Shown: positions 26,642 through 63,600 of the stretch, piece by piece
How positions within the stretch are numbered: the first letter of the stretch is position 1
Layout of the letters: each line of letters opens with the position of its first letter
Source of the DNA: Flectonema sp. DT1601
Taxonomy: Eukaryota
Reading direction: 5' to 3'
NCBI GenBank assembly: GCA_964019425.1
Contig: OZ025791.1
Span: 1,364,001 to 1,428,000, forward strand
Length of the DNA stretch: 64,000 nt
Program-made: the position numbers and the translations under genes
Notes under the pieces: generated by a model
What the model was told of the DNA's origin: nothing
The model's input: only the letters and a program-made list of their open reading frames with translations
The model's database searches: none

Positions 26642-27547
26642 AAATAGTTGCGATTCCCTTTAATATAAATAAATTAAATCTTCTACTGAGATGTGACTAG
26701 GTGGACTGAATTAGTGTTTTATGTAACATTTTTTATTTTTATTTATTTGTTCCGAATGACTACACCTTGTTAAGCAATTTTGTTATTTACTCTTTATTGC
26801 AACATGATTTTCTTTTCTTTTTTTATTTATTTCCCCGCCTCATTTTTTTATGAGAGGAAAGTTTCTTTTGGGGGTTTTAACTTTCGGTAGTTCGTCATCC
26901 TTTTCTGGGATAATTCAGTCGGGAATTTCTCTACTGAAAAAACACGTTCTTGGCAAACTGTTTTTAAAAAAAAAAAAAAAAAGTATTGTAGTTTACCCCA
27001 CCTCACTTCCACTCTAGTTTTTATGTCATTTTATTTACACATCTTGCGAAGTTTATTTTTCTTTTTTTCCCCCCTCTTTCCAACAATTCCTTCACCTTCA
27101 TTTGTTTAAAGCATATTTCTGTTTTCACTACATTGATAAATTAATCATTTCCAGTCTTTTATTTTTTCTTTTTTCTTCATTATTATTTATGTACAGACCG
27201 AGCAGTTTCACTCTTTCAGGGTACTTGAATACACTTTTTTTTTTTTTTTTTTTTTTTTTGCACCGACAAAGTCGGCGAAGAAACTATTCTGATTAAGAGC
27301 CTTTAGTCTATTATTTATTATGTCATGTTATCTGCGCCAGTAAAACCGTCTGCGATCAACAAAATATAAAGGTTTATCTGAATGGTTTTTTTTCTCTCTC
27401 TCTCTTTTTTTCCTTTCCCCTTTAATAAATTCAAGATCTGATTGGTATTCAAGACTTAATTGATAATCCTTAAATCAGAAAAAGCCTTTTATTGCGAAAA
27501 GTAGTTAGTCAGGTTGTTACGGAGCAGAACCGAGAATAAGGGAAAAG

Positions 27548-27645
27548 TTTAAATACGTATCCGGGGAGGTCAAAAAGATTCTCCACAAGGCCGTCACTGT
27601 GGTATATATTTCTCCAAACATTTGGTTAGACTTGTAGGTTTTCCC
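27548..27645. mobile_element. Degenerate solo right end (TIR) of the Mutator-like family seen at 42124-43574
   Basis: TTTAAATACGTATCCGGGGAGGTCAAAAAG..CACAAGGCCGTCACTGTGGTATATATTTCTCCAAAC..TGTAGGTTTTCCC aligns with 43481-43574. Confidence 0.8.
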
Positions 27646-32567: not shown

Positions 32568-33040
32568 CAGCCTGATTCCAGAGGTTACAACTGGAGGCAA
32601 TGATTCCTGATTCCGTAGGTTCCAATTGGAGGCAATGATTCCAGATTGCAGCCTGATTCCAGAGGTTCCAACGGGAGGCAATGATTCCTGATTCCAGAGG
32701 TTACAACTGGAGGCAATGATTCCAGATTGCAGCCTGATTCCAGAGGTTCCAACGGGAGGCAATGATTCCTGATTCCGTAGGTTCCAACTGGAGGCAATGA
32801 TTCCAGATTGCAGCCTGATTCCAGAGGTTCCAACGGGAGGCAATGATTCCTGATTCCAGAGGTTCCAATTGGAGGCAATGATTCCAGATTGCAGCCTGAT
32901 TCCAGAGGTTCCAACGGGAGGCAATGATTCCTGATTCCGTAGGTTCCAACTGGAGGCAATGATTCCAAATTGCAGCCTGATTCCAGAGGTTCCAACGGGA
33001 GGCAATGATTCCTGATTCCGTAGGTTACAACTGGAGGCAA
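32568..33040. repeat. Higher-order minisatellite: 81-bp unit of two 35-bp subunits plus an 11-bp linker, ~5.8 copies
   Basis: CCTGATTCCAGAGGTTCCAACGGGAGGCAATGATT + CCTGATTCCGTAGGTTCCAACTGGAGGCAATGATT + CCAGATTGCAG repeated. Confidence 0.95.
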
Positions 33041-34380
33041 TTCCGTCATATTCCTTTTAAGTTTTTAAGCCTTTTTATGCGATGATATGTTTTGGAATTC
33101 ACAGCAGAGTTTACTTTTTCTTAATTAACTTTTACTGTTGTTTGTGTTGTAAACGACATGTTATATTGTTGTTCACCTGGCATGACGAGGCTATCTAATT
33201 TATCGACTACACTCCCTTGAACCTGATCTATTTTTAATTTCAGGGGTTAGTGTCGTGAGATATAGTAAGAGTTCCCATCCTTTTCCCCCCACATATGGGA
33301 TTTTTTGTCGATACCAATTGTTGATCTTCTTATATTGCAACCAGATTTGGCCGAACCCTATATTCGTTTTTGCCAGTTTCAAGTTGCTTTAATTTAATAT
33401 TAGTATCAAGTTATCCCCATCTCCATTTACCCTCGACAGTAGTGGCAGGTCTTCTTTGTTTTTCTTGCTGTCGACCGTAAATGCGGGCTTGTACGTTGTA
33501 AGGTGTTTCCGTTGCGTGCTCGCTTCAGGACCTTTTCTTTCGTTTTTGCGTTGTCAATACCCCGAACTGCTTCAGGACTGGATTGATAAATTATATATAT
33601 TCATCAGTAATGAATTACTGTTACGGTAACAAATGCAGGGGGGTGCCTCCAGCGGTATTTTATTTATTTTGTATGCTTCCGCTGGTTTTCCTTTCAATGT
33701 GTAAGACCTATCAAGTTACCCCGGGAGGGTACTTCGATTTTACGGAGATTTGGGCGCGTTAGAATTTCTTTTTTGGAAAACGTGTAGCCAATTTATGAAA
33801 ACTACAACATGTTCCCCAAAAATGGGGATTGCGATCCACACTTTTGGGTTTTTTCATTCCTTGTCCAAATCACCCAAAACCAGGTTTTTTCGGCCCCGAA
33901 ATCACATTTTTCGGGGTTCTGATGGGGTCCTGGGTAATTTTTGCCCCGAAAAAACAGTTTATTAGCTTGAACCCTTCCCAAGAAGAGTACTCCACTAGTA
34001 GTGCGCTGTGATAAAAAGTTTTTTTTATAATTTATTACAATAATATACTAATATACCATAATCAATAAGTAACTACACCCCAGAATTACTTTCTGAGCGG
34101 TGATTTAATCTAAATATTTGGCTGATGATAGAATAGAGGTAAAGAAGTATATGGATTACTCTCGAAACCTAATAGTTTCTTCAAAAGGCTGAGCTAAGGC
34201 ATCACCAGCTAGCTCACTGTGTCCTTAACAGATTGTTAAATTATTGTTTTTTTTGTGTTAATATTTAGTAATTCAAAACATTGTAACCCAGATTGTCGGA
34301 GAAATTGTTGTTCCTTTGAACTTAAAAATGCAGTATCAAAATATCCCTTTCCCTAATTCCTTTTCTTTTTTCCCCCCCCT

Positions 34381-34975
34381 TTTGGAGCGGCATGATCGAA
34401 GACAATCTTTCTTTTCCCTCTTTTATTTCCAATCCCGTCGCCCCCGGGAAGTTTAATTGTAGTGACTAGCCATGAAGGGCATTTTGATTTACATTTGTGA
34501 CAGCTAGGGGGAGTGGAGTGTAGCGAGGGAATGGCACTTTGCCACTTACCGGCTGTTGACCGTATATGCGGGTTATCACGTTTCCTTTTTGTTTTAGGTT
34601 TTTTGTTAGTAGTGAGATGTGCTACGTTTATTTATTTCACAACGTGTTTCGCCATCTTGAACTACTTTTAATACAGTTTTCGTATCATCAAATACCAGTA
34701 TATACGGCTATTGACAAAGAGCCGCCCCCCTTCCTGGTGTTCGTCTTTTTCTATGGTTAATTTTCAAGACAATATAATGTATTAATTAAGTACTCATGAG
34801 TTTTATAAAAAGCTGTTACGGTAACATAGGCAAGTGGCGCTCAACTATGTTCACGTGGCCTCCAGTGGTATTATTTATATATTTGCAGTCATTTACTACG
34901 CTGCCGCTGACAGTCAAGATTGTCGGAGAAATTGTTGTTCCTTTTGAGCTTGAAAATGCAGTATCAAATTACCCC
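34381..34975 (+). repeat. Direct repeat, copy 1 (~595 bp)
   Basis: TTTGGAGCGGCATGATCG...CAGTATCAAATTACCCC recurs 902 bp downstream; identical ORF translations at 34566 and 35468. Confidence 0.95.
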
Positions 34976-35282
34976 TCTTTGCACTGTACCCCGGTATCTC
35001 TGTACTGGCGTGGAGCAGTGTATACCATATTGTGCCTATGTACAACTGACCACTCATCCAGTGTTGCTTTCCTAATTATTTATGCAACCCACGTTTAAAG
35101 TTACACACTTTGCCTAGGTCTGGGCAGGAACGGGAGACTGTGCGTGCTATCCACCGTTGAAGTGGACAAGTTTAATGCACTTCCCAAGGGACAAAATTAG
35201 CAAAAAAACGGCGGCTAGTCCGCGTGGTGTCCCCCTCTCCCTGTGTGAATTATGAGGATGTTTTGCTCGCCCCTTTTTTAAT

Positions 35283-35877
35283 TTTGGAGCGGCATGATCG
35301 AAGACAATCTTTCTTTTCCCTCTTTTATTTCCAATCCCGTCGCCCCCGGGAAGTTTAATTGTAGTGACTAGCCATGAAGGGCATTTTGATTTACATTTGT
35401 GACAGCTAGGGGGAGTGGAGTGTAGCGAGGGAATGGCACTTTGCCACTTACCGGCTGTTGACCGTATATGCGGGTTATCACGTTTCCTTTTTGTTTTAGG
35501 TTTTTTGTTAGTAGTGAGATGTGCTACGTTTATTTATTTCACAACGTGTTTCGCCATCTTGAACTACTTTTAATACAGTTTTCGTATCATCAAATACCAG
35601 TATATACGGCTATTGACAAAGAGCCGCCCCCCTTCCTGGTGTTCGTCTTTTTCTATGGTTAATTTTCAAGACAATATAATGTATTAATTAAGTACTCATG
35701 AGTTTTATAAAAAGCTGTTACGGTAACATAGGCAAGTGGCGCTCAACTATGTTCACGTGGCCTCCAGTGGTATTATTTATATATTTGCAGTCATTTACTA
35801 CGCTGCCGCTGACAGTCAAGATTGTCGGAGAAATTGTTGTTCCTTTTGAGCTTGAAAATGCAGTATCAAATTACCCC
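35283..35877 (+). repeat. Direct repeat, copy 2 (~595 bp)
   Basis: Apparently identical to 34381-34975. Confidence 0.95.
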
Positions 35878-39121: not shown

Positions 39122-40558
39122 GAGTAAAATTATCTGGCTTACCCCCCACCTGTGAATCCAACAGAAAAGGTAATAAAAAAATAATATGAAAATATAACTT
39201 CCCAAAATAGGAGAAGTGCAATGATATCATGTTTCATAATCAAGTGAAACCATTCGATTGTTTATTTTCTGCTGTGATGACCGAAAAAAATGAGCGAATG
39301 TTCAAACAGGCATCATACCAGGTAATGAGAAAAGATAACTTTTTTTTTTTTTTTTTTTTTTTTTTGGTTATTTATCATTAATAAGTCATAATGATGTGTA
39401 GCTTGAATACTCAATGAACCTCCAGTGAGACTTCCTGGAGTGTTGTTGACGTCAGCTCGATTAGTGTCTTAGATAGAGAGAATTCTCTCTTCACAATTGA
39501 CTTACGGATTTATGCATAACAAAATAACGATTGCTGAGGGAAGACTTGTACCTCGTGGTATCTTCCCTTGGCGTCAGTTTCTTTGTAGCTCACAACCATC
39601 AATTAGTTATGAGGGGACAGTCACTTTGATCTGTAGGTATCTGGTAGCCCCCTCCCTAGGTCTCGATTTAACTACGTCTCGCAACTCAAAAAAAAATCAA
39701 TTTCCAATGTTTTTCTTAACAGATGTTCATTTTTGCCTTAAGATCAAATCCAGGGGATGCATGCTAAGCGAGACACATAGAAGTCGATATTTAAGTATAA
39801 CACGCTTGAGAAGTGGAGAAGTGGTCAGATTAAGGTCTGGGCTACAAGATGCCTGCAGGCCAAAGTGGTAACCTGCTTTATGCGCGGCCTTTTCCCCCTC
39901 CTGTTCTTCTTTTCCCCTTCTTTTTTTTCTTTTTTGATACAGCTCAGTGTGATCATGATGATGATGTCATTTTTTAATTCACAAAACAAAATACTGAATG
40001 GAATTGACATTCTGCTTTTCTTTTTTCAGATGTTTTGTTTGAAAAAGTGAGTTAGATCGAAGACTCCTTCGCACTGTGAATTTATCACGGCTGTGTCAAT
40101 GAATCAAGTTATCTTTGATACAATACAGTTGCTTATCATAAAATTCGAAAATGCGACAACACTTTCGGTTTTTGCTTTATTCCTGAAAGTGTACTCTTTT
40201 TTTTTTTTTTTTTTTCTTTTTTCCCCCAGTTCAAGAAAAAAAAAAAAAAAAAAAAAAAAACACCTTTTCCCTCGTCAGATAGCTTTTTTTTTTTCTTTTG
40301 TTGTTTTTCCGTTAAGACCCAAGCAATTATTATTAGCGCTCAAGTTGCCCTGTTTCTTTAGCAGTTTTTTTTTTTATTCCTTTCGCAAATTATTTCTTTT
40401 AATTGCGAACCAACATTAAATTTGTTTTTTGAACAAGAAAGGAAATTATTTAAATCATTCCTCCTTTTTGACAGAACATTGTTATTAACAAGACTGATAC
40501 ACGCAGGCAACCACCCATAGTAACAAACAAAATAAAATATTAATCTCTCCTCAGAAAG

Positions 40559-42004
40559 ATGACAGAATTTCAAGAAATGTTGAACCAGAGCAGTCCTCGA
40601 ATTGGGACGGGTCACTACTACATTGAACAGAAGACATGCTTTGGTTGTACTTGTTTGGGAAATGACTTCGGGTGTTTAGGTCCACAAATAGTTAAAGACA
40701 GAACTGTCGATGGTGACATACTACTCGAGGCTGGAGGTACCAGTGATACAATAATGAATCACCTGTTTGGAGTTTGTTGTTGGCAACATACCATCAGAGA
40801 AGGTGGTTTCTTCCTCGGACTGACCGGCTTCGGAAATGTCAATCATATGAACTCATACACAGATAGTCCGAATTGGATTGGAATTTCAAATTATTTTCCA
40901 ATTCTTCAAATGACCCGTTACAGTTTATACATAACTCTTATGGTAGTGTTGATGGCATTCGTTTTCTTTATTTCATTTGTGAACGTCGGAATAGCAATTT
41001 TAATATCAAGTATCTTAGGAGGTGTATTCTTTATAATGTACCTCGTGAGGAATGCGCCAACATGTTTTGGTCCTGGATGGCCGCAGGCTTGGTTTTGGAT
41101 ATGTTGTTGTTTTGGTGATGGGAATCGATTCTATTATCACTTTACTCCTCAACATCGATTGTATTCTGTTATTACTAGTGAAGGTAATGAGGATATTGGA
41201 ATAGTTACAAAGGAGAAATATCATTCTAAAAAAATAATGTGTTGTGATCCTAAGTGTTCCTGTCTTATCTGTCCAGGTTGTTTTACTTCAAGTAAATCAA
41301 CTACAAATGTGACATCATCTTCAGACACTGGATCAAGAGTATTGGGTGATATCACTGCTGTTAGAATTAACTCTGGTTGCTGTACCACGGGACTCACAGA
41401 GTACTCTGGATTGGTTAGAGCTCGTGAGCCTCTTACTAAAGAAGAATTAATTAAATGGCTACTTTTGTATAACATTTCACACCACTCGATGCCGTTGAGA
41501 TTAAAATACCCAAATACCTGTACTGGTGAGGAAGCTATTAGGGTTTCATTGAATAATTGGTCTGCTCCAGAATTTGCAGAGAAGCTGAGCGATGCGACTA
41601 TTGGAAGACAGGTCCAAATGTTTGATTCATTTCTTGAGAAGAGAAATAGAAAAGTACAACCCGGATATGGCAACTCAGATATGAAATCTATGAAACCATT
41701 CCCCGACTCATCACATCACTTTATATCAATGCAACCAATAGAATCAGATCTTTATTCACCATTAGAATATAATAAAACTAACTTATTGCGAAGTGACGTG
41801 AGTACGATGGGATCCTCATCCCCAGCCGAACGAGGACCTCAGAATTTCAAAAGGCATTACCGTGTTCACAGCCGCGAAAGGAAGTCGAAGAAAGAGAAGA
41901 AGGAGAGGAGGGGAAAACTACGATCTGAGAAAGAAAAAAAAGCGAAAAAAGAAAAGAAAGAGAAGCGTCACCACCGCGAGAACTCCATTTGGAAGAGCCG
42001 CTAA
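40559..42004 (+). CDS. Cys-rich membrane protein with basic low-complexity tail (function unknown; weakly scramblase-like)
   Basis: 481-aa ORF, two long hydrophobic helices, several CC/CxC clusters, K/E/R-rich C-terminus. Confidence 0.75.
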   Translation: MTEFQEMLNQSSPRIGTGHYYIEQKTCFGCTCLGNDFGCLGPQIVKDRTVDGDILLEAGGTSDTIMNHLFGVCCWQHTIREGGFFLGLTGFGNVNHMNSYTDSPNWIGISNYFPILQMTRYSLYITLMVVLMAFVFFISFVNVGIAILISSILGGVFFIMYLVRNAPTCFGPGWPQAWFWICCCFGDGNRFYYHFTPQHRLYSVITSEGNEDIGIVTKEKYHSKKIMCCDPKCSCLICPGCFTSSKSTTNVTSSSDTGSRVLGDITAVRINSGCCTTGLTEYSGLVRAREPLTKEELIKWLLLYNISHHSMPLRLKYPNTCTGEEAIRVSLNNWSAPEFAEKLSDATIGRQVQMFDSFLEKRNRKVQPGYGNSDMKSMKPFPDSSHHFISMQPIESDLYSPLEYNKTNLLRSDVSTMGSSSPAERGPQNFKRHYRVHSRERKSKKEKKERRGKLRSEKEKKAKKEKKEKRHHRENSIWKSR

Positions 42005-42247
42005 GGATTGACGCGACTACCTGGCAGTTTTAGGACCTCACTTACTGTGCTGAGGTGTCTTCTTAATGACCTATTTACTGCAGCACATTTCTGACAATCA
42101 ATTTCCCCCCCTTCATTTTTTAAGGGAAAACCTACAGATCCACCCCCAGGTTTGGAGAAACGTATACTACGGTCACGGCCTTGTGTAGCTTTTTTGACAT
42201 TTTTTCCAAATCGACAGCCCTCTATTCTGGGCGAGAAAATTTTCAAA

Positions 42248-42320
42248 TCCGTGATAGCGCAGTGGTGTTGGTGCCGGACTGAAGCCCTGAAGGTAGGAGG
42301 TTCGATTCCCTCGGGGGGAT
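42248..42320 (+). tRNA. tRNA-Phe(GAA)-derived pseudo-tRNA / Pol III unit inside the element
   Basis: TCCGTGA-TAGCGCAGTGG (A box)..CCGGA-CTGAAGC-CCTGA-AGGTA-GGAGG-TTCGATT-CCCTC (B box), then oligo-T. Acceptor and other stems are partly mispaired. Confidence 0.75.
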
Positions 42321-42588
42321 TTTTTTTTTTTCCGAAATTTTTTTTCTGGGCATCTGTTCATCGCTGTTACTCATTTTTTTTTAAGGCTTGTTAACTTTTA
42401 AATACTACCAACGTGGTGCAGCGTAGCAACGCAATGCCCTCGAGGTTTGTTATTAGCCACAAATCATCGTTAGGGTTAAGCGTAATTAAGGTAAAGAGTA
42501 TGCTGGGGACAGGTGAGTGATGACTGCAACCGACAACATGCAAGTCAGTGATCCAATTTTTTCGTTCAGCTTTTGGGGCCTGCAAACC

Positions 42589-42704
42589 CAGCCAAGCGTT
42601 CATAGGACGTTGCTTTTGATCCTTCAATGTCGGCTCTTCCTAACCTAGCAGAATTGTCACCCACTAACAGGACCGTCGTGAGACAGGTTTTACCCTTACT
42701 GATG
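42589..42704 (+). pseudogene. Internally deleted fragment of LSU (28S-type) rRNA, peptidyl-transferase region
   Basis: CAGCCAAGCGTTCATAG-GACGTTGCTTTTGATCCTTCAATGTCGGCTCTTCCTA..GCAGAATT..CACCCACTAACAGG..ACCGTCGTGAGACAGGTTTTACCCTTACTGATG is colinear with the conserved eukaryotic LSU block. Confidence 0.88.
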
Positions 42705-43392
42705 GTAAGTCAATTTTTTTCAAAGAATTGTTGATTTTAAGCAAGTTATTTGTAGGTGAAACCTACACTCTGCCGTATTACATTATACCCCGGTTTTGGT
42801 TTCCCAGGGCTCAGTCCCGTTTCTAGTCCCGGTATCTACGGTTCTCCGATCGGAGCCGTGATGCTACGCAACACATCTGCAGTGACTGTGCTTGACTATG
42901 TTAGCCTTTGAAGTAAGTCAGTCAATTATGGAGACTGGATCACTTAGTCACCAGTGGTGGTTACTTTTTGATGGGGTTGCGTCCAAAACGATGGATTACT
43001 CTCTTATGTTAAAGTTTCCTTAAAGCTTCCTTAAGTTAAGTTTAACTTAACTTAAGGAAGAATTGCGCGATGACAGAAGGCTTCCAAGAGAGGTCCTAAG
43101 TCGAGTGGAAGTTTACACTATTGACCTTGAAGAACGACCCGCATGTGAATTTGATGCAGGGTCTTTGTAAGGTTCTGGTGTGAGACTGACTCTGTGCAGA
43201 CTTTCAAACGATGTTGCCAGGTTATGAGTCAGCAACCTGCACTAAGCAATGTCTCAGAGTACGACGAGTGTCCGAACGTGATAGAACGAATTAGCAGTAC
43301 GGATACGTCACGCACGACGTCAGCGGCGGCGTTCCCGACCGAACGGCCAGTGCAGACACTGGGGAAAAAAAAAAAAAAAAAAAAAAAAAAAA

Positions 43393-43463
43393 GACCCGAC
43401 AGGGGTTCGAACCGCAGCCTAGCGAATGCAAGTCTGCAATCATACCACTCGACAAATTGCGTC
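43393..43463 (-). tRNA. Degenerate tRNA-like Pol III unit (TGC at anticodon position, Ala-like) inside the element
   Basis: Reverse strand GACGCAATTTGTCGAGTGGTATGATTGCAGACTTGCATTCGCTAGGCTGCGGTTCGAACCCCTGTCGGGTC, followed by a long T run. A-box-like GTCGAGTGG and B box GGTTCGAACCC; stems imperfect. Confidence 0.65.
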
Positions 43464-44995
43464 GTCTTCGATTTTGCGGATTTAAACACATATCCAGGGG
43501 TCAAAAAAGTTACACAAGGCCGTGACCGTAGTGTACGTTTCCCCAAACCTGGGGGTGGATCTGTAGGTTTTCCCATTTTTTAATTTAGTATTTTAGTATT
43601 AGCTAGTTCAGTTCTCTCTCAAAGTATTTTTTCAAGAGCAAACAACAATCGCTGTTAGCCAAAAAACGTTCCTTGATTCTTTTTTTCTTTTTGCATAGAC
43701 AAAATCGAAAAAAAAAACTATTTAGATTAAAAGAGCCGTTTTATTTGTTATGTGTGTGTTCAGTATTCCTGCTTGCGATCACAACAAAATATAAGGCTTC
43801 ATCTGAATAGTTTTTTTTAAATTTCTTTTTTTATTGTTATGAAGCTATTGAGGGATTTCCAAGAGAAAGTTGAGAAAGGTTCGTTCCCTTTCAGACGATG
43901 TTTTTCTTCTTCCTTGAAATAGACTTCAATAAATCCGATTTATCAAAAAGAAATAGAGGGACGAGTAGTATAAGATTAAGACTCCTGAACCTACGTATTC
44001 CACAGTGTTTTATGGAACAGCGGAACAATTGTGTTTTCATAACTTTTTTTTAAATATTTTGTTTGATTTGGTGCACATTTCTTTCTATAAACTCATATTC
44101 TTATCTATCTTGTCTACAATAGTTCTAAAAATGGTAATTTTTAATTTCCAACAAAAAAATCCAATTCATTTTTTCATTTTTTTTCTTCTGAAAAAATGTT
44201 TTCTTTCGTTTCATTTCTTTGAGACACAACAACAATCCAAACAAGACAAGAATTAGGTCTACTTATGTTACTGGCTCTGTGGAGTTCGTTCGATGCTTCT
44301 TTTCCTCTCTATTCTGTTCTGTTGGTATTCTTTTTTCGTGATCAACAAGTTAATTGTTAGAGAAAAATATATATTTTTTAATACCATCACTTACAAACCT
44401 ATTGAGTAACTGTGCTATTCTTTTATTAGGATGTACTGGTTGCGAACAATCACTCTCTCGTGATGGGATTCTCTTCAAAACGTGATTCTTGACATCCTTT
44501 TCAGTAAAGGGATTGGTTGATATTTTATTCTTTGAAGTGACTGCCGTCTTGAGAGTTTAGTTTCTTATTTCTGTTATTTGTCTTTAATTTTTATTGTACT
44601 TGCTGAAGTTAACCGAAACTTTTCGACAGCAGTTTTTGTTACCAACAAAGTTAGTCCACAGCGGAACATGTCTCTCGCACATATTTATGGTGTATTCCCA
44701 TCACCTAAAATGAGTTTTTTTTTATTTTTTTTAAATTTTGTGTCGTCGATTATTCTTCGCACAATCGTTTCTGTACAGCTATTGTTGAGGTGTGATGAGG
44801 AAATTAATATTCACCTTCTACCCATCTCCTACAGTTGTATTGTTGTAGTACTTCAGTACTTCAGTACTTCAGTACTATACTTTAGATATCGCAGTTGAGG
44901 TAATCTCTTGTTGTGATCATTTATTTAAAGTTTCTGTGATGATGGAAGACAAAAAATAGTTTAATTCCATTCAACAGGAAAGAAGAGAGAGGAAG

Positions 44996-46618
44996 ATGCC
45001 ACGGCCACGAGCGAGCCGTGGGATGATTATTTTATGTTCTCTGGTTCTGTTGTTTGGGTCAGCACAGTTTATGATCATGAGACCACTACTGGCTGGGAGA
45101 AAAGGAAAAGAGAGATCGAAACCCCCAGCAGAGGAATCTGTTGAACAAGAATCAGAACCAGAACCAGAAATAGAAGATGTTGTGAAATCGAATTCACAAC
45201 AACACCGACAGGTGCACTTTAAAGAAATAGAATTTTCAAAACTGAAGTCAGGTGACTTCATTGCACTACAAGCAGCTGACGGCCGGTGGATCGCAAGACC
45301 TCCATCTTCGCATCATAAAACTGCTACTGCAGCTGAAAAGACCTGGAAGCTTGTCGTCAAAGACGAATCTCATTCTTTCAAGTCTGTCATTGGAACCTAT
45401 TTAGGACTCAACAGGGAGTCTGCTATAGTTGCTCAAGCGAGAGGAACCTCTTCAGAGGAGAGATGGAAAATCCATTCTGGTAGCGGCAGCACAATCTACA
45501 TCGAAGGTCTTGGTAGAGATGGTAAAAATAAATTTATTGGAACTGTCAACGCCACTGACAAAGATCTCAGCTGTAGGTACACTGAAAAGACATCCGAAAC
45601 TAAAATAAAAATTTTCAAAGTTACGAATTCCAACATCTGGGAAGACTACCTATCTGATAAAAACAAACACTACAACAAAGAGGAAAAGGAACAATTATAC
45701 TCCTCCTACTTGAAAGAATTCTTACCTATCTTTGGTTCTCCAAAACCCCTCAACAAGTCGGGTGATTTATACGAAGAAGCACTTTTAATATTTCAGAGGA
45801 CTTTGAAGGGGTGGCAGAAACTCCCCAAACCAATCCAACCATTACTTTTAATGGAACCAACTGATGATATTGGTATCAGACAAGTTACCGAACTCGGGGG
45901 GGGTTCCGTTTTGTCAGCAACAAAATTCGAACATCACGAAGAGTATAAGAAACAACCGACATACAGAGGATTGTTTTCAGCTGCATTTTCATTCGCAAAA
46001 AGTCACACGAAATCCGACTGCGAGATGGCGGTTTACAGCAACGGAGACATTCTGTACAGTACTTCACTAAGAGATACTTTAGGTAGCGCATTAAGCTATG
46101 CTGGTGAAGTTGAGAACAGTAATCGAGTACTTGTAATAGGAACGAGAATCAACACGGATATGCCAGATGATCTCGATCTTGATGTCGATAGTCAAGATTA
46201 CGATGCAGTTCTTAAAAAACTCGCTAAAACTGGTCGTCGTTATCAAAGTAATGCAGAGGACTACTTTGCAGTCTCACGGAGTCTTTTTGATTGGGATGCA
46301 ATGCCTGACTTTATTGTCGGTGGTGTTGCTTTTGATAACTGGCTCGTGGCGAAGGCTAATCGAGGATCAAAATCCAATAGAAAGTCGGTACCGACAGTTG
46401 TAGTTGACGCAAGTGATACAGTTACCGCCATTCATCAAAATCATGGAAAAGGTAGGAAGGATTCTCATCTACAAGGTAAGTCGACTTACAATAGAAAACT
46501 AGCAGTAAAAGAAGGCTCTTGGAGCAAAGGGAGAGTCGTCGATGCCAAATACTGCGCTCTAAACACTCCGTGGAAGGAGATCGTTGTGTTTGAAAGACGA
46601 AGAATGTTATTCAAATAA
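44996..46618 (+). CDS. Type II membrane protein: fascin-like beta-trefoil plus putative GT-A glycosyltransferase domain
   Basis: N-terminal signal anchor. FIALQAADGRWI / SFKSVIGTYLG / SEERWKI trefoil-like motifs. YSNGDILY (DxD-like), EDYFAVSR, PDFIVGGVAFDNWLV, VDASDTVTAIHQNH. Confidence 0.75.
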   Translation: MPRPRASRGMIILCSLVLLFGSAQFMIMRPLLAGRKGKERSKPPAEESVEQESEPEPEIEDVVKSNSQQHRQVHFKEIEFSKLKSGDFIALQAADGRWIARPPSSHHKTATAAEKTWKLVVKDESHSFKSVIGTYLGLNRESAIVAQARGTSSEERWKIHSGSGSTIYIEGLGRDGKNKFIGTVNATDKDLSCRYTEKTSETKIKIFKVTNSNIWEDYLSDKNKHYNKEEKEQLYSSYLKEFLPIFGSPKPLNKSGDLYEEALLIFQRTLKGWQKLPKPIQPLLLMEPTDDIGIRQVTELGGGSVLSATKFEHHEEYKKQPTYRGLFSAAFSFAKSHTKSDCEMAVYSNGDILYSTSLRDTLGSALSYAGEVENSNRVLVIGTRINTDMPDDLDLDVDSQDYDAVLKKLAKTGRRYQSNAEDYFAVSRSLFDWDAMPDFIVGGVAFDNWLVAKANRGSKSNRKSVPTVVVDASDTVTAIHQNHGKGRKDSHLQGKSTYNRKLAVKEGSWSKGRVVDAKYCALNTPWKEIVVFERRRMLFK

Positions 46619-48924: not shown

Positions 48925-49120
48925 GGTGAGCTCGTGTTGAGCAATCAATTCACCTCACAAGAAAACACAGCTACGCTATCTGAAGACGTTGGAATTGCGA
49001 AGGTTTGGTGAGCTCGTGTTGAGCAATCAATTCACCTCACAAGAAAACACAGCTACGCTATCTGAAGACGTTGGAATTGCGAAGGTTTGGTGAGCTCGTG
49101 TCGAGCAATCAATTCACCTC
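48925..49120 (+). repeat. 82-bp tandem repeat, ~2.4 copies
   Basis: GGTGAGCTCGTGTTGAGCAATCAATTCACCTC starts at 48925, 49007 and 49089 (one substitution in the third copy), with identical intervening sequence. Confidence 0.92.
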
Positions 49121-50410
49121 TTCATATGACCCAACTATTTATATAAAACAACTACCTACAATGTCTAATGATATGTACTACGTGTGTTCTCATCATTTTC
49201 GGACCCAGGAATAATTCTATTCTTTACATCACTATTTGGTGAGCTTGTCACCACCCCTCAAATGGATGTAACATGGAAAGATTTCCCTCTTTGTTATTAG
49301 TCAAGTTAAAACCCCCCTTTTGTTTTATTTTATTTTTATTGTTCGGTGAACTCTTTATTGTTATTCACGGAACTCGTTGTTTTTTTTTTTTTTTTTTTTT
49401 CGTTTCTTTTTTAAAGGAAAAAAAAAAAAAAAAAAAAAAGAAGGAAATAGAGGAGGAAAAAAAAGTGGAAAAGGAGTCCCCTCTCTCTACTGAGAGTCTT
49501 GTTGTGTATTATGTATGTATTTGTATTATTTAATTTTTGAGGAGGACTGTGTTTTTTATCATCGTGTCTCTAGCAGGATGACACGCTCTGCTTTTTGCCA
49601 TGGGTTTTTGTTTTAAAAAAAAAATTCCCCCTTTTCCCTTCTGTACCGCTTTACTCTCGAGACCTGAATTATTGTAACAGGAGAGTAACACAAGTTCAGT
49701 TAATGAACTGGTGTTTAATCTTCTTGTTTTAAAAGAATGATATGGTATAATATAATCGTATTGTGCTTTTCTAATTTTGTTTTTTAAAAAAAAAAATAAT
49801 AATAATAATAATAATGAAACTACAGCATTGTGAGATGTGTACTATATATCAAGTTTCTTTTTTTTCTTAATTTTTTTCTTCTTCTTCTGTTCTGTTTTAT
49901 ACTGGATCCTTTGGCAGCACAAAAACAGAATAAAGTGCCCCTTACCACCGCTGTGATGAAGTGACATGCTGTGTTTTAATTAACCAGTTGGTTTCTACAG
50001 TTCCAAGTTGACACAATGTTTTTGATCGTGAAGCTGATTCCTTTTTTTTTTATTATTATTTTTATTTTATTTTCTATTGCCGTCCTTTTTTTTGTTGTTA
50101 ATGGCTATCGGTTCTGTTTGGGTTTTCCCGCATTTTTTTTTTTTTTTTTTTTACTTTTATTTTCTTTTTTCCCCTTTTTATTTTATTTTAGTTTTTTTCA
50201 AAGAAAGAACACGGCTGGAATATTACATCTGTATCTCACTTCACAACCCGCCCAAAGAATTCAAAAAAACGCCTCAGTAACTTCATAGTAACTTCTACTA
50301 CGCCTCCACCCAGTCGTCTTTTCTGGTCCAACGATGGTTTTTTCACTATCAACCCGGTTTCGTCACCTCTTCCAAAAGACTCCGACTTCCCGTCTCTCAA
50401 CGCAACTCCA

Positions 50411-50761
50411 ATGGTGGTGGACTCTACGACTTGTTCTAATAATCCTTACCAAAACTCGCTAAAGCAGAACCATCCTAATCCACTCCCTCAGCAGGCACCA
50501 CAACCTCCAAATAATAAAGTCTCTCAGGCTTTGCCAACTCAACATACTAATGATCCATTGCAAGAACTAAAAGATCAAATCAAAGAGCTCTCTGACGCAC
50601 TTGCCGCAGAAAAGAAATTAAGTAGATCTCTCAGACGTGATCTTGATTCCCTAAAAAGCCAAAAGCAATCTGGAAACTCTGAAAAAGACCGACGTCCGCG
50701 TGCCAACTCTGCGATCACGGTCAATGATGATTTAAGAACTCGTGATACCACTAGGGAGTAG
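50411..50761 (+). CDS. Retrotransposon ORF1 (C-terminal coiled-coil part); frame is open without ATG back to ~50192
   Basis: Pro/Gln-rich segment then coiled coil LQELKDQIKELSDALAAEKKLSRSLRRDLDSLK. Same frame as ORF2 (offset 360). Confidence 0.7.
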   Translation: MVVDSTTCSNNPYQNSLKQNHPNPLPQQAPQPPNNKVSQALPTQHTNDPLQELKDQIKELSDALAAEKKLSRSLRRDLDSLKSQKQSGNSEKDRRPRANSAITVNDDLRTRDTTRE

Positions 50762-50770
50762 CAATCAACG

Positions 50771-53700
50771 ATGCCGCCTCCTCCAAAGAAACAGTACCAT
50801 GAAACTGTTACAGCACGTATAAATCTTCTACGTTCAGGTGTGCACCCTAACCCTGGGCCTCTTCGTGTCCTCTCCTGGAACATGAACCGTTATAAATCTT
50901 CTCGTCTTCATCTTGAAGACCTAGTTGCATCTTACGACCCCGATATTATTCATATCCAAGAATCATGGTTAAAAAGTGATGTATCAGATGATCTTCTTCA
51001 AATTAAAGGCTTCGATCTACATCGTCGTGACAGAGTCAGCGCAAATAAAACTGTTGGTGGAGGCCTTCTGTCTTATTTCAAATGCTCCTTACATGCCGAA
51101 TTCATCGCAGAAGACAGTAGTCATACTTATATTGAATCACTTTATTGTACATTTAAAACTGTGCTGGGTAACGTCTCGACCTGTAACATCTATATCCCTC
51201 CAGATGCTCTACACCTACCGAAATCCTTCAACTTGAGTGACCTCACCTTCGGAGACTTTAATGCCCACCACGAATCGTGGTCTTCTAACAATAAGATCCC
51301 TAGAAAAGCTTCAGGGAAGGTAGTTAGTAATTGGATACTTGATAATGGTTTGGCAGTCATACAACTTTCTCCTTCTATACCAACACACGGAACAACTCCT
51401 GACCTTGCTTTGCATTCTCCTCAGTTCAAGTGTTTCAATTCAATCCAAATAGATCCCTCTCTGGTTAACTCTGACCACACTCCTATAATCACCGATTTCG
51501 ACGTCACTCCACTCTCTTCATCCCAACAAATACCAGCCCATCGTAAATTCTTCTACGATAAATTCACGGAATTACATTGGAAAGCATTTACAGCATCTCT
51601 TGAGTCTCAGTGCCCACGTCTAAATAACATTAGATCTCTAAGCAAACTCTGCAAGGCTCTTCTCAAAACAATTGACAGTATTGCAATCTCCACCTTACCT
51701 AACAAATGGTACCCATTAAAAGCCTCACAACATCAACGCTCAAATCTCAATGCCGAAAATATTTTATTACAAAGTGGCAAGAGGGGGTTCTCTTGGACCT
51801 ATAAGAAATTACGAGAACTTAAGGGAGAGGCTACTGGACTTCACACCCCGTCTGCTCCGTTTGAATCACTTCACCAGCGCTTCTTTCCTACAGATTCACG
51901 CTCGGATGAACTTCAAATACCTACGGTTTCCCCTCAGGCCTTTTCCGATCCCTCTTGCAGGCCCTTCTCGACCTCAGAGGCCCAAGCTGTTCTGGACTCC
52001 TTGAAAAGATCAGACTCAACCGGACCTGACGCAATCTCAAATAACATGCTCCTCCACCTGGGTGAACAAGCTTTACATCTTATACTACGCATAGCCAACT
52101 GGTCATTCTATAGAGGAACACTGCCAAAATGTTTAAAAGTAGCTCATGTGATCCCAACCTATAAAGGAAACAAGAGAGACCCTACTGATGCAGCATCTTA
52201 CCGCCCTATATCTTTGACCTCAATATTATCGAAGTTTATAGAGTCTTTGATGCTCTCCAGACTGGAGCACTTATTGATAGATAAACTCGATCCCAAGCAG
52301 TCTGGATTTGTCCCCGGCAGGACAACAGACGAAAATATTGCAGTACTTATCAACGCAGCCTCCGAAACTAAAAGCGACTATCTCCAATGCGCTGTGCTCA
52401 TACTCTTTGATATTTCGGGGGCTTTCGACAACGTAGACCACAACCTACTTATGGATAGGATAAAACCTTTACTACCGACTCCCTTTGTACGATGGATAGG
52501 CAACTTCCTTTCAGATCGCACCGCTCACCTTCTTCATGGTAGTACCCGCTCAAAACCTATAGCCTGTACAAAGGGGGTTCCCCAAGGTAGTATTCTTGGC
52601 CCATTACTTTTTCGAATGTACGTTGACTCCTTACCAGAGTCCATTACGGTATCTGACACCTCACTACTATACGCCGATGATCTTGCGGTATATGTAAGTA
52701 GCTCGACAATCGACGATTTGGAAGCGAGAGCCAACAAAGCAATAGGTCAAGTAGAATGCTGGCTGGATAACTCCAGAATGTCATTATCCCATTCAAAAAC
52801 AGAATACATGTCCATAGGCAAACGTTTTACGGAAGACAAACGCATCTGTCGGCGTCCGCGTCTTTATTTCCCCTCGACAGTTGATGATGTCCCAATTCCA
52901 CGTGGGTCTTATCAATTCTTTTATGATCATATAGATGATGGGGCTGCTGCTTTACTTAACTTTGAAAACGGTCCCATCTTTCCCTTAGGTATAAATGGAC
53001 GTAGCGTGAACAATCGATCGCAATTCATAAACACCATTCCGAAGGGTGAATTTTCTTTGACAGCCGCCATCCCACTTCGTCAGGTGAAACAAACTCGGTA
53101 CCTGGGTGTTATAATTGATGATAATCTTACCTTTGAATCACAGAAAACAAAAATCCTGAACACTCTGAAACGTGGGATTGCTCTCCTATCGATGGTCTCA
53201 TCGTACCAAGTAAAGACTGAGGTGCTACGACAAGTCATTTTCGGTCTAATCCTCTCTAGAGCATATTATGGTCTAGCAGCATTTGCTCCCCTCCTCTCCA
53301 AAAAGGCGCAGGAGGAGATTGACCTGACACAACGTGTTCTCCAACGGAAACTTACCGGCTGCCTTAACTCAACAGCTACACCGGCCCTTTCAGTAGAATC
53401 CGGCATATTACCATTCAAACTACACCTTTCGAAATCTACTGCGTTGATGAATGAACGATTCTTGCGTAATAACAAGAACAGCCCCTCGTGGTCCATCTTA
53501 GACCCTGAGAAAACATCGAGCATGTGGAAAACATTTGCTTCCATCCACTCCAACAGATATCCTACTCCATCGTTGCGTTCATACCACTGCCTTCCGCATC
53601 ACCAAGCACCATGGGAGCCTCCGCCAGATGTAACTTTTAACCCCTGGAGAGAGTTCCGTAAATCCTTGGAACCTGTTCAGAACTTAGAAGCTGCTCTGTC

Positions 53701-54874
53701 AACAATGAAGAATCTCCCGCCGGCAATCGCCCGACTATACACTGACGCGTCCTATTTCCAAGACAAAGAACAGAATTATCGATGTGGCAATGCAGCCTGT
53801 CTGATCATAGGAAACAAATGCTTCTCTAAGAGGAAGCGCTATACACCTGCACTGATGATATACAATGCGGAGCAACAAGCTCTCCTATCAGCAGTTGAAC
53901 TGTTGGAAGAACACTCCTCCTGGCTCCCCAGAGGGAGAGTCCATATCATCACCGACAGTCAGTCCTCGGTAAGCAGCCTGGCAAAGGGATATCTCCGCCA
54001 GAGATCCACCACGAACATGGAAATTTTAAAACGCATAATGCTGCTCCGTCGCCCGATCACCTTCCAATTTGTGCCCTCCCATTGTGGAATAATTGGTAAC
54101 GAGCTGGCCGATTCGCAAGCAAGTAAAGCAGCGTCTTCTGATACTCTCCAAATTACAGAGGTAGCTTTCGACTACCGAATGGTTCAGTGCTCTATCACGA
54201 ATCAAGTTAACAAGATATGGTTAAGGGAAAGAGACTCTAACCACGTTCACTATTGGTCAACCCTCGGGGGAAGAATTCAACGCTTCCATCCAAACCTGAA
54301 GCGGTCTGATGAAGTACACATTTCACGCCTCCGCACGGGTCACCACCATTTGATCAAGATCCCCTCTCAGGGTCTCACGAATTGCAACTTCTGTAACGAG
54401 CCGTTAACAAGCACGCATCACTTATTATTCAATTGTCTCGCATTACGCCCAATTGTGCAACAATACTTCCCACCAACAGCAACTCTTGAACAAGGAGAAA
54501 TGGATGTCGGTCAAAACCTCCACAAATTCTTCTCGACAGAACACCAACCAGAGCTTATGAAGTTGATAATGAAATTACATGAACTCCCATTATGGCAGGC
54601 AATACCTCAACAGCACCTTATGGAACATTTGTATAAGTGGACTAGCTTTCCGACCTTCAACACAGCAACACGAAAAACAGTCGTTGCGTACATTAAAGAA
54701 GCCTACACTCTCACCGACATAGAGGAAATACATACCAATCTTGATTGGGTATGGATGTACTGCTATCCTGACTATCTTAACAACGATACAAGCATGAAAA
54801 AGCTCCTCGACAAAATCCAGGACTCCCAATACAGCCGTATCGATGCGGCGTGGTTTAACAGACAAGTTCGATAA
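50771..54874 (+). CDS. Retrotransposon ORF2: 2A-like peptide, APE endonuclease, reverse transcriptase, RNase H, CCHC knuckle
   Basis: APE: VLSWNM, IQESWL, NIYIPP, GDFNAHH, SDHTPI. RT: YRPISLTS, DISGAFDNVDH, GVPQGSILGP, YADDL, RYLGV. RNase H: LYTDAS, NAEQQAL, TDSQS, VPSHCGIIGNELAD. CCHC: CNFC..HLLFNC. Confidence 0.97.
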   Translation: MPPPPKKQYHETVTARINLLRSGVHPNPGPLRVLSWNMNRYKSSRLHLEDLVASYDPDIIHIQESWLKSDVSDDLLQIKGFDLHRRDRVSANKTVGGGLLSYFKCSLHAEFIAEDSSHTYIESLYCTFKTVLGNVSTCNIYIPPDALHLPKSFNLSDLTFGDFNAHHESWSSNNKIPRKASGKVVSNWILDNGLAVIQLSPSIPTHGTTPDLALHSPQFKCFNSIQIDPSLVNSDHTPIITDFDVTPLSSSQQIPAHRKFFYDKFTELHWKAFTASLESQCPRLNNIRSLSKLCKALLKTIDSIAISTLPNKWYPLKASQHQRSNLNAENILLQSGKRGFSWTYKKLRELKGEATGLHTPSAPFESLHQRFFPTDSRSDELQIPTVSPQAFSDPSCRPFSTSEAQAVLDSLKRSDSTGPDAISNNMLLHLGEQALHLILRIANWSFYRGTLPKCLKVAHVIPTYKGNKRDPTDAASYRPISLTSILSKFIESLMLSRLEHLLIDKLDPKQSGFVPGRTTDENIAVLINAASETKSDYLQCAVLILFDISGAFDNVDHNLLMDRIKPLLPTPFVRWIGNFLSDRTAHLLHGSTRSKPIACTKGVPQGSILGPLLFRMYVDSLPESITVSDTSLLYADDLAVYVSSSTIDDLEARANKAIGQVECWLDNSRMSLSHSKTEYMSIGKRFTEDKRICRRPRLYFPSTVDDVPIPRGSYQFFYDHIDDGAAALLNFENGPIFPLGINGRSVNNRSQFINTIPKGEFSLTAAIPLRQVKQTRYLGVIIDDNLTFESQKTKILNTLKRGIALLSMVSSYQVKTEVLRQVIFGLILSRAYYGLAAFAPLLSKKAQEEIDLTQRVLQRKLTGCLNSTATPALSVESGILPFKLHLSKSTALMNERFLRNNKNSPSWSILDPEKTSSMWKTFASIHSNRYPTPSLRSYHCLPHHQAPWEPPPDVTFNPWREFRKSLEPVQNLEAALSTMKNLPPAIARLYTDASYFQDKEQNYRCGNAACLIIGNKCFSKRKRYTPALMIYNAEQQALLSAVELLEEHSSWLPRGRVHIITDSQSSVSSLAKGYLRQRSTTNMEILKRIMLLRRPITFQFVPSHCGIIGNELADSQASKAASSDTLQITEVAFDYRMVQCSITNQVNKIWLRERDSNHVHYWSTLGGRIQRFHPNLKRSDEVHISRLRTGHHHLIKIPSQGLTNCNFCNEPLTSTHHLLFNCLALRPIVQQYFPPTATLEQGEMDVGQNLHKFFSTEHQPELMKLIMKLHELPLWQAIPQQHLMEHLYKWTSFPTFNTATRKTVVAYIKEAYTLTDIEEIHTNLDWVWMYCYPDYLNNDTSMKKLLDKIQDSQYSRIDAAWFNRQVR

Positions 54875-60358: not shown

Positions 60359-60521
<163 letters not shown>

Positions 60522-60683: not shown

Positions 60684-63600
60684 ATGAACGAGTCAAATGG
60701 AAAAGCAAAACAGATATCCTTGTTGCTAATTGACCTCAGACAGAATGCTATTTCTGGAGAAGGACGAGGGGTTGTAGTTGCAGATACAGGTTTACTACTT
60801 GCTAGTATCGATGAAATAATACACAAAGTCGAAGGTGCAGACGAGTGGTCTGCTGTTGGAGATGTCTTATTCAACAGAACGGAAGGCATTTTTCGATTTG
60901 TTGATTTGGTCGTTAAAATAAAAACAGCATCACTCGCCTCAACAAGAGCTGATACTATGAGTACTACTGATGGAGGCTTAAAAAGTGCGATCGACTTGGT
61001 TACGTATTTCATATCAACTTCAAGATCAACTCAACATAATACCTACATCACTCTGCAGTGTGGTGAATTACTTAGAAGAACTACAGCAATACGAGGGATT
61101 AGTTTATTTCAAGAAGCATTGTTTGGACCACTCACTTACACAATTGAGAATTGTATTGACCTTTCGATATCTGCGGGTGATATCGGAGTAGTGGAGTTGT
61201 TGGATACGCTTCTTAAAATCACAACGCAATCATCATCTCGTAAAGCTTCGCTGTTCTCTCAGAGAGTCCGAAGATGTTCTCTTGCAACTTTAGGTTTGAT
61301 CACAAAAATATTTCCTGCTGAATGCTCATTGCGATCTCCAGACATAACAATTTCATTCAAACAAACCCTCGAACACATTGTGAAGTCAGAATCACCTGAA
61401 TTTACAGTCGCTGCTGGTCTGTTGGACGGAATTACCAATTTCTTACATAACTTTTCAAACACAGAAGATCACAACTGGATTGAAACTCTTTATAAATTTA
61501 TGATCAGAGGAATGGAGTTAATCGACCACACTCGTTATGATCTTCCGAAGGCAGCTCTTCGTCTTCTTAAGAATCACGCGAAGTTATTTAGAAAACTTTT
61601 ATTAAAAGACAGAATGATATTTGGATTACTCAGAGCATTAGTCTCTCACAGGAATGATTATCTCAGAAAAGCAGCTATTCCGGCAGTGGGTCCTTATGCT
61701 GGAACACTTGCTGTGGAAATCGTAAATAACAAAACATCTGATGAAAGGTCCAGACTGAGTATTTTCAAAAATGTTTACAGCAATGCATCAGAACTCACTA
61801 TTCAAGGTGGACAAGGTCATAAAGTATCACTTGGTGTACTTACTATGGGATATTTATCTCCAGCTGCTGTTTTCTTTAATGGATCAGAGGCTGGTCATAA
61901 CATCTTGTCGGTGTTGTTATCGAAGTTTATTAATATGTTTACATCAATAGACGATGAGTTAATTGGTGATTCAATCAGGTTGATTCCTTCTTATATTGAT
62001 GCGATTTCTGCTGCCGTCTCCAGCACGTCATCGACTCTTCCGTCTCTTTTAGAACAAAACCTCTCGGAATGTATTCGAATTGTTTGGATTCATTATCCAA
62101 GGCCTTATACTTTTACTTCAACTAGAGTGAAGATTCACACGACTCTCGTCAGACTGTTACTCGCAATCTATAACTCAACTGATGGATTACAAAGGATATT
62201 AAGAAGTGTAATGTTCAGTATTGTGTCGCTTACTATTTCAGGAACAGAATCGATTCCTGTCGAATACAACAAACTTTGGAATAGTATCTGTTCTATCTCA
62301 GCTGCTACGGTATGATCTCTTATAGTTTATTAGGATAATATTATGGTAAAGTAAAGTATTAATAATAAACAAAACAAATCAAAACAGGTTTGGGATTACC
62401 CTTGGGATAACATCCTCGGTTCTGTAAGTACTGGACACCATCTTCACATGACGAGTATTGTTGTTGATTCTGTTGCGACCACAGTAATGCAACTGGTCTC
62501 AAGACTTGATTTATCATTTCATAAAGACTCAACAGATGACGTCCCTTTGGCAAGAAATCCAAAAGACTTCACTCTGTTTCATAACGTTGTGGCGTTTTGG
62601 AATAAATTATTTGAAAAAGTACGAGACCCTGGGATCATAAACGATTGGTGTTTATCCTTAGCCGTAAAGTGGATAGAGTTAAGTGAAGTATATCCTCATG
62701 TTAGTGGGTTTTATTCTCTCTTGACAATCGTAGTACGCAAGGCAACAACCATCGAAGAAGAAGCTCCTGCGACTCAACCAGCAAACAATACCAACGATCC
62801 CGAATTTAATCAAATTATAAGAAAGTTCATTGCTGACACACTTAAGAATGTCGAAAGTAGGTTCAAAGGTGAGATTCTCATAGCCGGATGTAAATTTTTG
62901 TTGTCGCTACCAGTGCAGTTGGTTGAACTTCCTAAGATGAAAAGTACGTTAGAGATCTCATTAAACATTGGACTATCACTTCCAACAATAGCAAGGATAA
63001 CAATTGATACTTTAGAAAGATGGATAGAATCGAGTAATGCGGAGGAAGCTGCTAAGCTCGTTGCTCCTTCGATTCCAATTCTCCGCTCATTTGTAGCCAC
63101 TGCCCATGAAAAACTCCACACAGATGGAGGTGAGTCTTCTCACGACAATGAAGTTTCCATCCTTCGCGATCTACAAGTCCGTATAATCATAATCTTGGGA
63201 AAACTAGGACCACTACAACTGACATCTAAATCAGAAGAAAAAAAGCTCGACGACGGAATTGAACCTCCATGGGATGTCGTCAGCCGAGTTGAGATAAAAT
63301 TGCCTTTCGATGCGAACTACACGCTGGCTTTTGATAAATTATTACCCAGAATCTGTACTTTATCATTAACAAGTAATGACAGAAAGGCAAAGACTGCATC
63401 ATGTGAATTACTACATAGCATAATAATATGGATGGTTGGGACCAACGCTCACAGCTTAAAGACAACTTCAGCGACGCAGGATTCTCCGGTAGAGACGGCA
63501 ACACCTTTTCATAAAATATACAGCAAAGTGTTTCCAGTAGTTTGCCAACTGGCTGTTGACTCAGAACCCATCGCAAGTCAGATGTTCACAAAACTACTTC

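Follow-up and report, generated by a model that had tools for sequence, protein, structure and literature searches.

Within a 64,000-nucleotide stretch of the Flectonema sp. DT1601 genome (contig OZ025791.1, positions 1,364,001 to 1,428,000; hereafter the window), we identify a 1451-bp element at 42124-43574 as a non-coding, non-autonomous transposon with terminal inverted repeats (TIRs). It carries two units that we recognise as tRNA-derived, from different parent tRNAs, one behind each TIR and both facing inward. We propose, tentatively and with a probability of about 0.38, that these units are long-standing, promoter-only landing pads for TFIIIC and TFIIIB beside each end of the element.

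Ends and classification of the element

42124-43574: whole element, 1451 bp
42115-42123: left target-site duplication (TSD) copy, 9 bp, the same 9-mer at both flanks
42124-42198, plus strand: left TIR, 75 bp, starting with GGG, 96% complementary to the right TIR
43500-43574, minus strand: right TIR, 75 bp, 96% complementary to the left TIR
43575-43583: right TSD copy, 9 bp, the same 9-mer at both flanks

The 75-bp TIRs and the perfect 9-bp TSD of the initial annotation were recovered. As the TSD 9-mer occurs just 8 times on the plus strand of the 64 kb, the match between the flanks is not due to chance, and the near-identity of the TIRs together with the perfect TSD suggests a recent insertion. 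Neither a Pfam match nor a transposase remnant was found in the 16 interior reading frames tested (of 33 listed), which argues that the element is non-autonomous. The analysis of the element rests on one full copy, in a 64-kb window.

A piggyBac- or Kolobok-type element is defined by a TTAA target duplication, and this assignment was rejected because TTAA adjoins the left end only. The element had originally been labelled a Mutator-like element (MULE), a label with which its TIR length and TSD agree: the TIRs (75 bp, 96%) lie inside the 14-500-bp range (PMC6446971) and the perfect 9-mer, from one insertion, inside the 8-11-bp range, whereas 75 bp falls below the more than 100 bp called typical of MULE TIRs in PMC5499845. 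However, Merlin, which occurs in Euglena and kinetoplastids, fits equally well: its TIRs of 24-462 bp that begin with GG and its TSD of 8-9 bp (PMC8101967) agree with the ends described here. We consider it likely that the element is of Mutator or Merlin type, with its transposase encoded elsewhere; MULE-like open reading frames (ORFs) exist in the diplonemid Diplonema papillatum (PMC10161547). Scans with a TIR pattern gave no match in viral contigs and prokaryote genomes, and two metagenome matches, of at most 14 nt, were dismissed as chance.

Two degenerate tRNA-derived units

42248-42319, plus strand: tRNA-Phe(GAA)-like unit, facing inward; 16.9 bits; 68% to viral-contig tRNA-Phe; 13/21 cloverleaf pairs
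42320-42345, plus strand: T12 (42320-42331) directly after the left unit, followed by a T8 run; predicted RNA polymerase III (Pol III) terminator and back-up
43393-43463, minus strand: inward-facing tRNA-like unit, the second of the two, closest to tRNA-Pro (D arm); 13.4 bits; 66% to viral-contig tRNA-Pro; 15/21 cloverleaf pairs
43392-43365, minus strand: T28 directly after the right unit (A28 on the plus strand); predicted Pol III terminator

Position 1 of the left unit is 42248, 124 bases inside the element, and that of the right unit is 43463, 111 bases inside, in agreement with the starts first given (124 bp, plus strand; about 111 bp, minus strand). The initial annotation had also proposed that tRNA models be applied, and here the outcome depended on the model. 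At its default setting ARAGORN found no tRNA gene in the window, and Rfam listed its tRNA family for neither unit at E<=10; ARAGORN relaxed to a 90% threshold gave two matches in the window, one of them the right unit; relaxed to 80%, it gave 30, one of which was the left unit. A purpose-built covariance model, constructed from 24 viral-contig tRNAs of other isotypes (no Phe or Pro) and run over the window with filters off, was positive: among 13 matches at E<=10, the left unit ranked first (16.9 bits) and the right unit third (13.4 bits), with a 19-nt T-arm-like piece in a coding region between them. The units are the two best full-length matches in the 64 kb, yet they score below eight held-out true Phe and Pro tRNAs (30.6-38.7 bits), so we regard both as real but degenerate tRNA derivatives. 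Neither has the cloverleaf and the tRNA-level score of a functional tRNA gene.

When compared with 85 distinct tRNAs of 22 anticodon classes, the left unit matched Phe(GAA) best (68%) and the right unit Pro(TGG) (66%), labels that are partly circular because the Phe and Pro comparators were retrieved with patterns drawn from the units. The first pattern retrieved two loci, both tRNA-Phe; the second retrieved 98, of which 78 were tRNA-Pro(TGG), 16 no tRNA and 4 of another class. The Pro label is the weaker one, since the right unit reads TGC at the anticodon position. Aligned with each other, the two units score 34.5, a value inside the range seen between isotypes (42 +/- 11); this points to different parent tRNAs and bears out the original description of two different units. 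For the same reason we rejected the idea that the units are decayed arms of one longer TIR; the similarity of the spacers was matched in 534 of 2000 shuffles.

Promoter boxes, terminators and placement

Both units retain the two internal promoter elements of tRNA genes at normal spacing. The left unit has a consensus-like A box (42255-42265) and a B box identical to the consensus (42299-42309), 44 nt apart; the right unit, on the minus strand, has an A box with one miss at the second position (43455-43445) and again an exact B box (43413-43403), 42 nt apart. A combined A-box and B-box pattern, fitted to the units, occurs in the window at these two sites only. The exact B box alone is found four times, against 0.76 expected; the matches at 19357, inside a long ORF, and at 63255, in the coding-like stretch that lies downstream of the DNA-PKcs ORF, were rejected as further units, having no A box at tRNA distance. 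Trypanosomatid boxes and terminators have been described (PMC2695483).

In both units a T-run begins at tRNA position 73-74. Runs of at least 10 T are common in the non-coding DNA of the window (1.45 per kb per strand), but one starting in a given 4-base slot is expected in less than 1% of cases. The cloverleaf, by comparison, has decayed: 13 of 21 pairs form in the left unit and 15 of 21 in the right (random pair probability 0.42), with the outer acceptor pairs kept in both, and neither unit folds better than its own shuffles (z-scores of -0.04 and +0.12). The kept boxes, adjoining oligo-T tracts and degraded stems noted at the outset were thus all confirmed, whereas an autonomous promoter, one of the roles then suggested, is unlikely for the interior, given that the units run straight into tracts of 12 and 28 T.

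The same complete layout of promoter plus terminator would be expected of small-RNA genes, whose Pol III transcripts of about 75-85 nt could serve the element, for example as decoys for RNA interference (RNAi) or RNA-binding proteins. The outer acceptor pairs kept in both units would agree with this, a Leishmania major tRNA-like sequence is transcribed (PMC4950102), and D. papillatum encodes an RNAi pathway (PMC10161547). The folding results argue against it, as does the absence of any common sequence or structure in the two units beyond the boxes, and we regard such genes as quite unlikely.

The symmetry of the units is approximate. Their near-symmetric placement, as first described, holds in that both face inward and lie near the TIRs, but the A boxes start 131 and 119 bases inside. 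By a post hoc calculation, the probability that a pair of randomly placed 85-bp units would lie one at each TIR, no more than 50 bp from it and both pointing inward, is about 1/1200 (0.00085). A neutral change of 20-32% would spare both sets of boxes with a probability of 0.007 to 0.00007, a rough and post hoc estimate which ignores that the units were noticed because their boxes are visible, and in which divergence, measured against viral-contig tRNAs and not the host's own, is overstated by some amount.

Placement also bears on whether the boxes could drive Pol III outward through the TIRs, in the manner of the trypanosomatid tRNA-like sequences that drive small nuclear RNA (snRNA) genes about 104 bp upstream (PMC4950102). 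The position 104-106 bp upstream of each A box does fall inside the TIR, and orientation and distance are of the right kind. However, the predicted starts lie at unlike TIR positions (26-28 versus 14-16), while the published distance is nearly invariable, which weakens this explanation. No Rfam small-RNA family is found at the predicted starts, 104-106 bp upstream of either A box, and a T4 run at the TIR tip would end such a transcript within about 25 nt. We therefore consider divergent promoters highly improbable.

A direct repeat around the left unit

42225-42232, plus strand: 8-bp direct repeat, copy 1, flanking the left unit
42344-42351, plus strand: 8-bp direct repeat, copy 2, flanking the left unit

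An 8-bp direct repeat encloses the left unit together with its T-runs and is possibly the TSD of a nested insertion. A complex shared word of at least 8 nt was found in 21 of 3596 control flank pairs and in 18 of 2000 shuffles. Each unit could be a tRNA-derived short interspersed nuclear element (SINE), a short retroposon inserted into the transposon whose boxes were conserved during its SINE life. Both units have the head with A and B boxes that is characteristic of tRNA-SINEs, and the enzymes could be supplied by the non-LTR (LTR, long terminal repeat) retrotransposon ORF of the window, with its endonuclease, reverse transcriptase and RNase H domains. Against this, the right unit has no flanking repeat (longest common word 4 nt), the head runs directly into T12 or T28 in both units, with no body or A tail, and no further copy of either was found in the other 62.5 kb of the window. 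No match was detected between the units and the window's long interspersed nuclear element (LINE). On balance, we judge nested tRNA-SINEs unlikely.

Interior of the element and a related 106-bp element

42577-42704, plus strand: 28S rRNA fragment, Rfam RF02543 model positions 2832 to just past 2984
43026-43060: perfect palindrome, 17-nt arms and 1-nt loop, folding z-score -6.5
27540-27645, plus strand: related 106-bp element, a diverged right end plus a 7-nt TIR-type start; no unit, no TSD

The initial annotation mentioned none of the three features listed here, nor the 8-bp repeat around the left unit. The middle of the element holds a 28S rRNA fragment in which substitutions are few and several internal deletions have each removed between 1 and about 20 nt. 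It scores 23.5 bits against RF02543 (E 0.0027), below the gathering score of 50; no Rfam match reached gathering level in the window, and the other Rfam rows, below their own gathering scores, were treated as chance. The fragment shares an exact 19-mer with two loci that Rfam calls eukaryotic large-subunit rRNA, and was extended to 42704 by BLAST. The palindrome is likely repair or filler DNA; together with the 28S scrap it makes up a middle that was probably captured as filler, in the manner of Pack-MULEs. With a 28S fragment and tRNA-derived units between the TIRs and a TSD outside, the element has the composition of a Pack-MULE or Pack-type transposon.

Some minor features lie beside these. 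Just past the 28S fragment, at 42755-42767, a 13-nt word resembles the TIR start with 2 mismatches and is possibly a nested-end remnant. A CpG-rich stretch at 43265-43364 (observed/expected 1.62) ends in a small hairpin directly before the A28 run and folds no better than shuffles; the A28 run could alternatively be the A tail of a piece retroposed on the plus strand. Two viral-collection contigs, L105 (1-361) and L106 (2245-2589), contain short eukaryotic 28S pieces from the same region as the fragment, and the matches of L005 and L006 to a 17-nt 28S pattern were set aside as chance.

At 27548-27645, DNA about 75% identical to the right end of the main element extends over 98 bp and includes right-specific subterminal DNA. 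The homology ends about 13 bases before the expected start of the unit, and exactly there stands a 7-nt TIR-type start; the word occurs 17 times on the plus strand, and the chance of that placement is about 0.003. This 106-bp element is probably a deletion product; having no unit and no TSD, it gives no evidence either way on units in the full-length element from which it came. Neither local alignment nor nhmmer found a partner TIR for this 27.6-kb end in the window. Its outer 9 bases equal the main TSD at 8 of 9 positions, a hint, from two sites, that T-rich stretches of the coding strand may be preferred as targets.

Such an interior is what would be expected if the units were mere passengers: a Pack-MULE-like scrap collector would have taken up two tRNA or tRNA-like genes of the host with their terminators, along with the 28S piece, during gap repair. 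The units would then be useless to the element, and their symmetry would arise because internal deletion spares DNA near the ends. The multiply deleted 28S fragment and the perfect palindrome in the same interior support this explanation, as do the roughly 3600 scattered 28S pieces of the D. papillatum genome (PMC10161547) and the frequent host fragments in non-autonomous MULEs (PMC5499845). The unequal unit offsets, the abundance of T-runs and the unit-less 106-bp relative also agree with it. What it accommodates less easily is that two different tRNAs are mirror-placed and both face inward, and that both B boxes are exact despite decayed stems, for which past selection for promoter function would be needed somewhere. 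We consider passengers a serious possibility, although one that falls well short of even odds; together with nested SINEs, such accounts come close to even.

Genomic setting

The window encodes an ethanolamine kinase whose best named relative is a D. papillatum protein (47% identity), and we accordingly place the host among the diplonemids, marine protists. All protein-like ORFs of the window lie on the plus strand, and the listed minus-strand ORFs fall within plus-strand ORFs or in tandem repeats, a layout expected for a diplonemid gene cluster. Diplonemid gene clusters are co-transcribed (PMC10161547), and the early guess of a polycistronic genome was right in kind. ORF 40544-42004 stops 110 bases before the element, and ORF 44960-46618 begins about 1.4 kb after it.

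Proposed role of the units

With all mechanisms taken together, we give selected, built-in Pol III modules slightly better than an even chance. Among these we favour promoter-only landing pads, for which we propose the following hypothetical scenario. With a T-run at position 73-74, any Pol III transcript would be limited to about 75-85 nt, so that neither the interior nor a transposase could be transcribed from the units. In any case, DNA transposons do not need an RNA intermediate. The value of the units to the element would instead lie in the bound factors themselves, TFIIIC and TFIIIB next to each TIR, which would keep the DNA beside the TIRs open for the transposase or, alternatively, form a boundary inside a polycistronic RNA polymerase II (Pol II) unit.

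Several observations are consistent with landing pads. The exact B boxes, A-box cores and A-B spacing are kept, while about one third of positions differ from the nearest comparator tRNA. Retroposed copies are expected to carry an A tail. On the sense strand the units end in T and have no A tail, and so look like gene copies with terminators, not retroposed copies. They have diverged from tRNAs far more than the TIRs from each other (96%), and more, in substitutions, than the 28S scrap from its Rfam consensus, as would be consistent with old residents of the element. Comparable uses of such sequences have been reported: the CeRep3 repeats of C. elegans, in which the A and B boxes are kept, are bound by TFIIIC in the absence of Pol III (PMC6950938), trypanosomatid tRNA-like sequences have boxes without a cloverleaf and are functional even within polycistronic units (PMC4950102), and a four-subunit TFIIIC has been reported in trypanosomatids (PMC10781861).

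Other observations weigh against landing pads. The evidence comes from one full copy, the element gathers RNA-gene debris (the 28S piece), and the 106-bp relative is without a tRNA-like unit. The 8-bp repeat around the left unit may be a TSD belonging to that unit, which also keeps two non-promoter parts, the anticodon loop and the variable region; as the unit's comparators were chosen by a motif from these very parts, that retention cuts both ways. In addition, the A boxes are not equidistant from the two ends (131 against 119 bases, a difference of 12 bp), and the divergence of the units is overstated, having been measured against viral-contig tRNAs and not those of the host.

Pol III promoters in mobile DNA are understood for retroelements that need an RNA template (SINEs, Cassandra, Helenus). 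As a cut-and-paste element needs no RNA, selected Pol III modules at both of its ends would imply a transcription-independent use, in chromatin opening or insulation. Euglenozoan tRNA genes have been proposed as end signals of polycistronic transcription (PMC2695483), and on that basis such an element could also move boundaries of gene expression. The element is, moreover, a concrete lead on a carrier of the scattered diplonemid 28S pieces, some 3600 of which have been reported in D. papillatum (PMC10161547). In the most far-reaching version, which we regard as rather unlikely, a euglenozoan transposon family in which a promoter-only tRNA module stands behind each TIR, a different one at either end, would act as a mobile, double-sided TFIIIC/Pol III boundary cassette that shields itself and its cargo, punctuates polycistronic units and carries the scattered 28S pieces. 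If the units are passengers, what we describe is a Pack-type element of the usual sort, from a lineage with poor annotation.

Comparison with known systems

Non-autonomous MULEs and Pack-MULEs resemble the element in their long TIRs (14-500 bp), 8-11-bp TSD, lack of a transposase and internal host fragments (PMC5499845, PMC6446971). In contrast to Pack-MULEs, the cargo here is RNA-gene DNA, namely two tRNA-derived units and a 28S piece, and the units are mirror-placed. The likeness to the IS1016-like Merlin elements lies in the TIRs of 24-462 bp starting with GG, the 8-9-bp TSD and the occurrence in Euglena and kinetoplastids; however, the element has no DDE_Tnp_IS1595 ORF, and the euglenid families described have 8-bp TSDs (PMC8101967). 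The word tRNA occurs nowhere in the main text of PMC8101967.

The TRIMp3 elements Helenus, Ajax and Cassandra are likewise non-autonomous; each of their terminal regions contains a Pol III promoter derived from a small RNA, the boxes are conserved and the RNA is not functional as a tRNA (PMC10886601). Unlike the element, they are LTR retroelements with direct repeats and a 4-5-bp TSD, in which the promoter is needed for the RNA template (PMC10886601). Here the ends are inverted, no long direct repeat bounds the element, and two different units each terminate at once. The C. elegans CeRep3 repeats and extra-TFIIIC sites, in which a tRNA-like repeat keeps A and B boxes, are the model for the proposed mechanism, but paired modules inside TIRs are not part of what PMC6950938 describes, and TFIIIC binding was measured there whereas it is inferred here. 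Trypanosomatid tRNA-like snRNA promoters are also euglenozoan, with boxes kept, cloverleaf lost and a polycistronic location possible; they differ in being single-copy host promoters located at a fixed 104-106 bp from an snRNA gene (PMC4950102), a gene that is absent here. SINE28 and the scattered D. papillatum pieces share with the element a 28S fragment in a mobile or dispersed repeat (PMC10946416; PMC10161547), which in our case lies inside a TIR element, while the D. papillatum pieces have no assigned carrier in PMC10161547. Pokey is the sole DNA transposon in a review table of transposable-element sequences derived from ribosomal DNA (PMC10946416).

Searches of open-licence full-text literature returned no DNA transposon described as carrying tRNA-like modules in a pair, and PMC2817418 and PMC12621601 contribute nothing on such a layout. 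The presence of tRNA-like DNA in a TIR element is probably not without precedent, given that pseudo-tRNA predictions in C. elegans overlap some DNA-transposon repeats. What sets the present element apart is the combination of two different tRNAs, one at either end, with a 28S piece.

Other features of the window

50192-54874, plus strand: non-LTR retrotransposon, 1370-aa frame with endonuclease, reverse transcriptase and RNase H domains
34380-34975 and 35282-35877: 596-bp stretch duplicated exactly in direct orientation; a third, partial copy (60 bp) lies at 34290-34348
11573-13000: tandem array, 153 bp x 9.5
32568-33041: tandem array, 81 bp x 5.9
48925-49120: tandem array, 82 bp x 2.4
60360-60520: perfect trinucleotide run x 53.7
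60684-62315, plus strand: N-terminal part of DNA-PKcs

Near its start, the 1370-aa retrotransposon frame has what we take to be a 2A-like motif, and the 189-aa frame upstream of it, which shares its reading frame, is set off by just one TAG. The 596-bp duplication may be a young repeat or an assembly artefact. The DNA-PKcs frame stops at 543 aa, and coding-like DNA runs on to the end of the window, which suggests an intron or a frame break.

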